Assembly: GCF_006345805.1 (NCBI RefSeq)
Contig: NC_043019.1
Span: 11,221,360 to 11,285,359 of the forward strand
DNA: 64,000 nt
DNA from: Octopus sinensis
Lineage: Eukaryota
Direction of reading: 5' to 3'
Of the stretch, positions 10,604-13,417 are shown piece after piece. Positions within the stretch are counted from its first letter, which is position 1, and every line of letters begins with the position of its first letter. A program made the position numbers and the translations under genes. A model generated the notes under the pieces. That model was not told the origin of the DNA. It saw only the letters and a list, made by a program, of their open reading frames with translations, and searched no databases.

Positions 10604-12187
10604 TTTGTTTTGGTATCACAATTAAATAATCAACATAAAATTCTGTCAGTTTTTTATAAAAGATTTGACTGATTTCATTGAAATAGTTAACTCTGAGACA
10701 CCCTGTCTATACTATGTAATATGGCTTTGTGTGTGTGTGTGTAGGTAGGTGCAGATGTGTGGTAAGAAGTTTGCTTTCCAACCATTTGCCTCTGAGTTCA
10801 GTCCCACTGGGTGGAACCCTGGGCAACTCTCTTTTACTGTATTCCAAGATTGGCCAAAGCCTTGTGAGTGGATTTGGTAGATGGAAACTGAAAGAAACCT
10901 TGCCAAATATTCACATATAACTCTGTGAAGTGGTTGGCATTAGGAAGGGAATACTGCCATAGAAACCATGCCAAAGCATAAACTGGTACTCGGCACAGCC
11001 TTCTGGCTCATCTGTTCGTGTTGAACTATCATCCGACCCTGCCCAGGGCTAAAAAAACGATGTTAAATGATAATATTGATGATGAAATACTCCTCTCAAC
11101 AATGCTTTGCCTTACCGAAGTTTCTAATAGAAGACACTTGCTGGAGTTTCCACTCAGTGGGATTGAAACTGGACCCATGGGATTGGAGAAGGAATTTCTT
11201 AACAGCGCAGCCATGCTTGTATCTATATTTGCACTCACTCAATACAACTTTACTGTATATATACAAATTACGAACTCCCTCATCTATGCAAACATGTATG
11301 CGTCATATGTGCACACACACATACACGCATGTCTGCGTGTGTTATATAGTGTGTGTGTATATATATGTGTGTGTATTTGTATATGTATATATGTTTATAT
11401 ATTTATATATACATTTGTGTGTGTATATTTATGTATATATGTGTGTATATATTTATATATACATTTGCGTGTGTATATTTATGTATATGTGTGTGTATTT
11501 GTATATATGTGTCTGTATTTGTATATGTATATATGTGTGTGTATTTGTATATGTATATATGTGTGTATTTGTGTATATATATATATGTATATATGTTTAT
11601 ATATTTATATATACATTTGTGTGTGTATATTTATGTATATATGTGTATATATTTATATATACATTTGCGTATGTATATTTATGTATATATGTGTGCGTAT
11701 TTATATATATATACATACACACACATGTACAAACATATACACATGTACAGAAACATTTATACACACACACACACACACACATACAAACACACCTATTCAC
11801 TCTAGTAGATGTGTATACATAGATGACAAACTACGCACATCTTCATCTCTCCAGTTGCTGCTGCAGATTTTCAAAAAGTCATCACCATAGAAACGCCAGC
11901 ATTTATCATTCTCTCTGTATTTCCTCCTCTGTGTCATTGACAGTGGTCGGTGCAGTCTGTTGCTGCTCATAGTACTCAGCTGCCCCAATATATCATTATA
12001 TATGCACATATGCAAGTACTATACACACATACACACATTTGTGTGTATGCAGATATACATGCACAGGCACACACACACACACACACGTGTGTATGCATAT
12101 ATATATGTGTGTGTGTGTGTGTGTATATCTGTGTGTGTGTGTATATATATGTCTGTGTATATATATATATATATCTGTGTGTGTGTG

Positions 12188-12218
<31 letters not shown>

Positions 12219-12322
12219 CTCTGTGTGTGTGTGTGTATATATATATGTATATATATATATATATTATATATATATATATATATATCTGTGTGTGTATGTA
12301 TATATATATATATATATAGCCA

Positions 12323-12391
12323 GCCGAAATAGCTCAGTTGGGAGAGAGTTAGACTGAAGATGTAAAGGTCCCTGGTTCCCTGGTTTGGGCA
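12323..12391 (+). pseudogene. tRNA-Phe(GAA) retro-pseudogene followed by trailer, LINE-type tail and poly(A) (to about 12480)
   Basis: gccgaaatagctcagttgggagag..ttagactgaaga..taaaggtccctggttc follows the canonical eukaryotic tRNA-Phe; 4-nt T-loop deletion and stem mismatches. Confidence 0.85.
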
Positions 12392-13417
12392 TCCGGTGGT
12401 TGGCACATTTCTTAACGGCGGTGCATCAGCATGGCCGCAGCTATGAGCTGGAACTACAGCAAAAAAAAAAAATAATAATATCTGTGTGTGTGTATATATA
12501 TGGGATCAATGTGATCAACTATCCCCTTCTCTCAAATTTCAGGCCTTGAGCCTAAAGTAGAAAGGATTATTAGTATTAAAGCAGTGAGCTAGCAGAATTG
12601 TTAGCAAATCAGGAAAAATGCTTCTCAGCATTTCTTCCAACTTTATGTCCTGAGTTCAAATCCTGTGGAGGTGAACTTTGCCTTTGATCTTTTTCTAGAT
12701 TGTTGTAATCAACTAGACCCTTCCCTAAAAAATTTCATGCCTTGTGCCTATAGTAGAAGGGTTTCATGGCTTAGTGGTTAGGATATTGCACTCACAAGCA
12801 CAAGATTGTTGTTTCAATTCCTAGACTGGGTTGTGCATTGTGTTCTTGAACAATAAACGTCATCTCGTGTTGCTCCTACACCTGATGCGTGGTACACCAT
12901 GCACCCATCAGGGAATGTTGATCTAATTAGAGAGATTGAACTAATGTACAGCACTTACATTTGACCACTTTAAATAAATCATTTGTGCGGGTCATTCAGC
13001 AAAAGCAGAACACTCGTATGTTGCCTTCGACGGAAGAGTCCGTCATTATAGTAAGAGATGGGCTGAGGTGGATAAAGAGAAAAAGATGGATTGACTCCGG
13101 TACGTGACCAGTACTTCATTGATCCCACAAAGGGTGGAAAACGAAGTTGACTTTGCTGGGAGTCAGAGTCAAGAGATTTGGAACAAATCCAATGAGACAG
13201 TCTATCTGGTGCTTTGATGATTCTAAAAATGGATAACCCTATGTATATATATATATGTATGTAATACATTGATACATACACATATGTATACATATACACA
13301 CACACACATATATACATACCTTACATATACATATATACACACACACACATATACATATCTCTCTTTATATATGTACATATATACACACACACACACACAT
13401 ATATATACATATCTCTC

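Follow-up and report, generated by a model that had tools for sequence, protein, structure and literature searches.

Precursor tRNAs and other small RNAs joined to LINE tails at a fixed break point in the genome of Octopus sinensis

Chimeric retrocopies of small RNAs and LINEs are already known, as in U6/L2. U6-L2 and U6-Mon1 chimeras were reported from the platypus, with 40 U6 chimeras in all, and U6 joined to L2, RTE, or AnolisSINE2 was reported from the lizard (Doucet 2015, PMC4476161). Template switching in the birth of SINEs has been discussed in several papers (PMC4494074, PMC7245038, PMC4824008, and PMC4758252), and a switch to a tRNA was proposed for the birth of PittSINE (PMC5729268); how SINE tails are exchanged "remains unknown" according to one of these sources (PMC4824008). 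The tRNA-derived SINEs OK, OR1, and OR2 of octopus go back to Ohshima and Okada 1994 (cited in PMC4824008 and PMC4758252). The way in which a tRNA head comes to bear a LINE tail is usually argued from finished SINE families, whereas the genome studied here contains hundreds of raw intermediates, for which the genes of origin, the lineages of the donors, and the bases at the junction are known. New here are precursor tRNAs of most isotypes, the scale of the class, and a fixed break in the LINE. No chimeras of pre-tRNA and LINE tail and no fixed tail break were found for cephalopods in the literature covered, the scope of which did not extend to Repbase and subscription journals.

The tRNA-Phe chimera and its source gene

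The window is the whole 64,000-nt stretch of NC_043019.1 that was analyzed (11,221,360 to 11,285,359), in a host genome of 2.72 Gb. The tRNA-Phe unit in it is made up of the parts listed in Table 1. The earlier note had described a tRNA-Phe without CCA, followed by TTTCTT, a LINE tail, and poly(A), all of which are present where it placed them. The unit begins 4 nt upstream of where that note had it begin, with a short leader; the trailer that it gave as about 20 nt exists but is 16 nt long, and its "oligo(T)" is a T-rich remnant in which no run exceeds 3 T. The tRNA body scores 34 bits against the Rfam tRNA model (gathering score, 29), and ARAGORN did not call it. Compared with the intact tRNA-Phe gene at L008 (C3), the copy carries four substitutions, including C40G, and a 4-nt deletion in the T-loop that damages the B box, and it therefore does not have both the A box and the B box intact. 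The locus also lacks the intact cloverleaf and the terminator of four or more T that a functional tRNA gene would have.

L008 shares the leader, the body, and the 16-nt trailer with the copy. Identity between the two ends beyond the 4-nt leader on one side and at the T-run on the other, limits that are as expected, judging from the alignment, if what was copied was the primary transcript, that is, the pre-tRNA. On its 3' side the RNA part stops where the transcript itself would, at the oligo-U end, and the 5' flank is not that of the gene. The trailer pattern has 10 matches in the genome, among which L008 is the sole intact gene with a long T-run; an intact gene combining the exact terminator of the copy with C40G was not found among the loci read. 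The match of body, leader, and trailer to L008 bears out the proposal that this is a specific tRNA and not the degenerate head of an ordinary SINE. The further proposal of the earlier note, that a pre-tRNA was captured on a LINE tail, is supported by the agreement of the trailer with the 3' flank of L008, by the end of leader identity after 4 nt, and by the flank test described below.

Several other tRNA-Phe sequences were seen in the genome. Intact genes for tRNA-Phe and tRNA-Thr are clustered at C6:4.20-4.33 Mb and on C10280, and the leaders of the clustered Phe genes are able to pair with their trailers. At C15:43562335-43582219 there is a tandem array of units of about 200 bp with a tRNA-Phe sequence in each, some 60 of which were listed, and L284 is a pre-tRNA-Phe copy with trailer and T5 that sits inside a (TA)n repeat without any tail.

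The flanks of the Phe unit are a single split microsatellite array, and no clean target-site duplication is present at the locus. One motif of the array occurs five times in the whole window, with four occurrences upstream of the unit and one directly behind it. Most likely, the pre-tRNA-Phe copy and the 47-nt LINE tail were inserted here together.

Table 1. Features of the window discussed in the text, with the basis for each assignment
Feature	Position	Strand	Basis or remarks
Whole Phe unit	12319-12472	+	Pre-tRNA-Phe copy, 47-nt LINE tail, and A12, within a single microsatellite array
5' leader of pre-tRNA, 4 nt	12319-12322	+	Same 4 nt precede intact gene L008; pairs with trailer in predicted fold
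tRNA-Phe(GAA) body, 69 nt	12323-12391	+	Rfam match; alignment to L008
3' trailer of source tRNA gene, 16 nt	12392-12407	+	Matches L008 trailer
Pol III terminator remnant TTTCTT, longest run 3 T	12408-12413	+	Sequence; same remnant in L002 and L029, longer in L009
LINE 3' tail, 47 nt, from fixed break point	12414-12460	+	Identity to seven LINE-body copies; fold
Tail hairpin 1	12416-12437	+	Predicted fold, pair counts
Tail hairpin 2	12438-12450	+	Predicted fold, pair counts
A12 tract	12461-12472	+	Sequence
Compound (TA)n/(TG)n microsatellite array, split by Phe unit	12040-12500	.	Array motif counts
tRNA-Thr(TGT) chimera: true first ~8 nt missing, 10-nt trailer, T5, A-rich end	34353-34504	+	ARAGORN, Rfam, tail matches
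Decayed, 5'-truncated LINE of a related lineage, not the donor	46293-47250 (5' extent approximate)	-	Broken ORF2 C-terminal frames

The earlier note missed the genome-wide process, the fixed break, the other donor lineage, and a second case within the window. This second case is a tRNA-Thr chimera whose tail starts at 34433 and belongs to a LINE lineage other than that of the Phe tail. An apparent empty site for it was seen in one public contig (run X4); the other three of the four runs compared gave no match. The contig follows the window to 34352 and continues with 12 other letters; the next 18, compared by eye, agree at 16 positions with the sequence that follows the tail in the window. The whole unit of tRNA, trailer, and tail is missing from it, and half of the matching part is CA repeat. 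Runs X9 and X10 have the filled allele up to 34390. Downstream, at 35690-35795, an exon matches Pfam DEAD_2 (E 3e-10) and presumably belongs to an RTEL1-like helicase, and an exon-like stretch occupies 34194-34277. The Thr chimera seems to lie inside an intron of this DEAD_2 helicase gene, about 70 nt past a splice donor.

A genome-wide class with a fixed LINE break

An exact search for a T-loop followed at 18 to 45 nt by the tail gave 147 matches in the genome and none in a reversed control, so that the association is not due to chance; 100 of the 147 matches were listed and 70 loci were fetched. The T-loop pattern demands two A before the stem and is therefore unfit to measure the precision of the junction. 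ARAGORN at its default score recognized 38 of the 70 chimeras, with 23 anticodon labels (a few of them doubtful) for 16 amino acids. The Rfam tRNA model was passed by 25 of the 40 chimeras tested, and the 15 failures, by eye, are roughly nine 5'-cut tRNAs and six sequences that look like SINE heads or unknown RNAs. Other small RNAs are joined to the tail as well. U6 is followed by the tail in 59 matches (control, 0), many of them with extra bases at the junction and three of them belonging to one tandem repeat, which gives substance to the analogy with U6-L1 chimeras drawn in the earlier note. 5S RNA precedes the tail at L074 and L257. A T-loop joined to the 5' end of the SINE was found 81 times (control, 0), a few of these cases being SINE on SINE. 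The tandem U6 repeat, at C14:7253081-7253291, contains the junction three times with a spacing of about 87 bp.

In these chimeras the small RNA stands in sense orientation, 5' of the 5'-truncated 3' end of a LINE, and the tails used come from several LINE lineages. Across the 70 chimeras the trailer is 8 to 31 nt long, and introns are kept in some (L031, L054, and L056, with over-long Rfam matches at L109 and L130). At least 11 of the 70 stop short inside the tRNA relative to a longer partner, judged by eye; a count of 33 "short" loci was set aside because it is symmetric between partners. A triple chimera at C3:69.71 Mb (L267/L056) consists of a pre-tRNA-Phe, a (CT)n stretch, an intron-bearing pre-tRNA-Lys, and then the tail. 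Many high-scoring "tRNA genes" of this genome are retrocopies, and they record the leaders, introns, and 3' ends of pre-tRNAs.

Individual loci show further variety. The tRNA-Lys(TTT) copies L031, L056, and L130 have introns of about 19 nt and L044 has none, and L109 (Met) also carries an insert. Copies of pre-tRNA-Thr or pre-tRNA-Phe at L172, L263, and L026 stand on a short tail of a different kind that has (ATT)n-like repeats at its end and is probably from another LINE family. tRNA-like heads of unassigned identity, some of them seen twice, precede the tail at L135, L140, L111, L102, L199, L203, L244, and L251 and may represent unannotated Pol III genes or short SINEs. At L255 what precedes the break point of the tail is a GC-rich sequence without an Rfam match at the gathering score.

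Both parts of the chimeras behave as one inserted unit at the level of the class. When the flank before the RNA was compared with the flank behind the tail at the 70 loci, the mean shared run was 9.7 versus 7.4 after permutation (p=1e-4), and (TA)4 stood on both sides of units more often than expected (Fisher p=2e-4); the 25 nt before the tail showed no excess likeness to the flank behind it (p=0.20). The likeness of the flanks arises mostly through split microsatellites, with non-repetitive matches at 7 of 70 loci versus 2.4 expected. Classical target-site duplications are mostly absent among the 70, L033 having the one clear case (13 nt). Together with the apparent empty site, the flank test indicates a single-event insertion of both parts, and the chimeras were very probably retroposed as one unit. 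It also speaks, as does the empty site, against the case of an independent insertion beside a dead tRNA gene, which the earlier note had named as the alternative; an element inserted alone beside a pre-existing tRNA gene is very probably not what these loci contain.

The tail is of LINE type, as had been claimed, but the LINE at 46.3 kb in the window, to which it had been matched, was rejected as the donor: its positions 46293-46330 have the same type of tail and agree with that of the Phe copy at only 79% over 38 nt. The donor lineage is represented elsewhere by seven copies with a LINE body, which are identical to the Phe tail at 42 to 47 of 48 nt. These make up 24 matches together with 17 other copies, among which are Phe twice, Asp, two tRNA-like heads, 5S, and tail-only copies. 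A long copy with a related tail (L290) has Pfam Exo_endo_phos_2 and RVT_1 matches above the cut-off and a CCCH finger upstream; its ORF2 ends with a stop 16 nt upstream of the tail, and in LINE copies the tail starts about 16 to 25 nt after the ORF2 stop. When the C-terminal part of ORF2 was searched by itself, no Pfam family was matched at 0.001. An APE endonuclease, a reverse transcriptase (RT), and a structured 3' tail are thus all found in the donor LINE type (L290 and the hairpins), which by its motifs is a putative member of the CR1 group rather than of L2, Crack, or Daphne. Across 16 natural tails the two hairpins show compensatory changes, with 91% of positions paired and 14 double-change cells, a number reached in none of 500 shuffles, although related sequences can inflate it.

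In nearly all of the chimeras the LINE part begins at one fixed place, 2 to 3 nt before hairpin 1, and is not variably truncated as in U6/L1 chimeras. To survey where copies start, a pattern was used that relied on the 3' part of the tail alone; it gave 2,187 matches, the first 70 of which were examined. Twenty-nine of the 70 start within a single bin of 8 nt at the base of hairpin 1 and 6 within the next 50 nt (p=8e-20 for 29 versus 6), with 8 more starting inside the stem of hairpin 1 and 27 further up. In the lineage of the Phe tail, 12 of the 17 non-LINE copies start, by eye, at the same nucleotide. The major SINE of this genome (46,446 rows) ends in the same hairpin, and its body joins the tail at the same point, so that the fixed break coincides with the body-tail junction of that SINE. 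The body is kept in 98 of the first 100 of the 46,446 SINE rows, and a break at the hairpin base is accordingly seen in 29 of 70 LINE-type copies versus 2 of 100 SINE copies (Fisher 2e-11). Since the SINE with the same hairpin is rarely broken, the break belongs to the LINE RNA and not to the hairpin alone. A self-cleaving ribozyme at the break was also considered and rejected, as no Rfam ribozyme family appeared among 113 matches (E<=5, 11 loci).

A proposed mechanism, its alternatives, and the possible birth of SINEs

Given the observed anatomy of the chimeras, the size of their class, the fixed break, its specificity to the LINE, and the behavior of the class as single units, the mechanism that we favor with moderate confidence is one in which a trimmed LINE tail fragment is copied and the RT jumps from it onto U-ended Pol III transcripts. 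LINE mRNA would be cut or degraded to a discrete, protein-bound fragment of about the extent of the tail, which would be copied by target-primed reverse transcription at an A/T-rich target. At the 5' end of the fragment the enzyme may add 0 to 6 untemplated bases. The end of the cDNA would then either join the target, leaving a tail-only copy, or the enzyme would jump to the U-rich 3' end of a pre-tRNA, U6, 5S, or SINE RNA. Chimeras with a broken terminator, such as the Phe copy, might subsequently undergo read-through by Pol III and re-copying and so become proto-SINEs. End-to-end jumping is supported by the 81 junctions of a T-loop with a SINE 5' end, by the extra bases at U6 junctions, and by the triple of two tRNAs and a tail. 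For the R2 enzyme, jumping requires untemplated addition (PMC8857657). If this mechanism is true, it would show a birth route of new SINEs; the choice between template jump and ligation, and the role of the broken terminator in SINE birth, become directly testable here.

Ligation of the tail fragment to U-ended small RNAs before reverse transcription, by an RNA ligase of the RtcB kind, is an unlikely alternative. RtcB joins U6 with a cyclic phosphate to L1 RNA with a 5'-OH (PMC6789731), and the fixed 5' end of the LINE part and the 59 U6 chimeras would fit an RNA that had been cut. Junctions between a tRNA and a SINE head nevertheless exist 81 times despite the 5' triphosphate of SINE RNA, and many U6 junctions have extra bases. 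Precursors of tRNA and 5S have 3'-OH ends, and SINE RNAs begin with a 5' triphosphate; many partners in the octopus chimeras presumably cannot be RtcB substrates.

Somewhat less likely again is the absence of any discrete fragment, in which case the RT would abort on full-length LINE RNA once past the binding hairpins and the cDNA end would switch to a small RNA. The position of the break at the base of hairpin 1, and the 8 of 70 copies that end inside its stem, would agree with such an abort, but the near single-nucleotide precision of the break would not, nor would the 98 of 100 SINE rows in which copying went on past the same hairpin.

It is very improbable that the LINE targets the T-rich terminators of tRNA genes or of their dead copies and that the tail was inserted independently as a severely truncated element. 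Retroelements that target tRNA genes do exist, TRE3 being an example. In the octopus genome tails follow T-runs, and insertions of the tail alone are frequent, with a preference for A/T-rich sites. Against this, the apparent Thr empty site is without tRNA and tail together, the continuity of the flanks spans the whole unit and not the tail alone, some of the tRNAs are 5'-cut, and T-runs but no tail were found in the intact Phe and Thr genes read from the clusters. Finally, that the Phe locus belongs to an established tRNA-Phe SINE family of the ordinary kind is barely credible, for although the window copy, L002, and L029 share junction, tail lineage, and C40G, there are three such copies only, other Phe chimeras differ in trailer, junction, and tail, and one change in the window tail recurs in the tRNA-Asp chimera L243 but is missing from L002.

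An exact match to C40G was found in 3 of 109 sequences, namely, the window copy, L002, and L029, which have a common junction and tail lineage; L029 has lost both hairpins. With a tRNA head and a LINE-derived tail, they have the makeup of a tRNA-derived SINE, and their sequences suggest that they are possibly a newborn SINE. As there is no T4 run, a master copy would be open to Pol III read-through and re-copying. It is about equally likely that one variant gene was captured more than once, since the window tail shares a change with L243 and not with L002.

A wider picture can be offered tentatively, with slightly less than even confidence. LINEs of this type may routinely shed a protein-bound tail RNA of about 50 nt with a defined 5' end, which would serve as a universal adaptor, being inserted alone in about half of the events and otherwise capturing any U-ended Pol III transcript. 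The genome would then be a running SINE factory, the tail of the 46,000-copy SINE would have been acquired in this way, and the Phe chimera would belong to a newborn SINE that has three copies.

Comparison with described systems

The chimeras of platypus and lizard resemble those of octopus in having a sense small RNA before a short, tail-specific piece of a LINE or SINE, often with the RNA 5'-cut, and a target duplication that is short or missing; template switching was proposed for them, also in connection with SINE tails (Doucet 2015, PMC4476161). They differ in that the octopus chimeras number in the hundreds and include, besides U6 and 5S, pre-tRNAs of many isotypes that retain leader, intron, and trailer, and the passages of that paper on its chimeras describe neither a fixed LINE break nor a tail-only class (PMC4476161). 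In human tRNA/L1 chimeras, as here, tRNA and LINE were inserted in one event, but the 21 cases are mostly antisense halves attributed to twin priming (PMC13174262), whereas the octopus chimeras are in sense orientation, derive from precursors, and have a fixed junction. The U6/L1 chimeras ascribed to RtcB likewise have the 3' end of U6 on the 3' part of a LINE, yet there the L1 is variably truncated and the process depends on poly(A), in contrast to the fixed octopus junction (PMC6789731). TguSINE1 and PittSINE of passerine birds have a tRNA head directly on a CR1 tail, as in the chimeras described here, and are established families derived from a master copy, in contrast to what are mostly one-off intermediates in octopus (PMC5729268). 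The abundant SINE of this genome, about 400 nt long and present in more than 46,000 copies, has a degenerate head and a body in front of the same tail that the chimeras carry. This SINE may be OR1/OR2.
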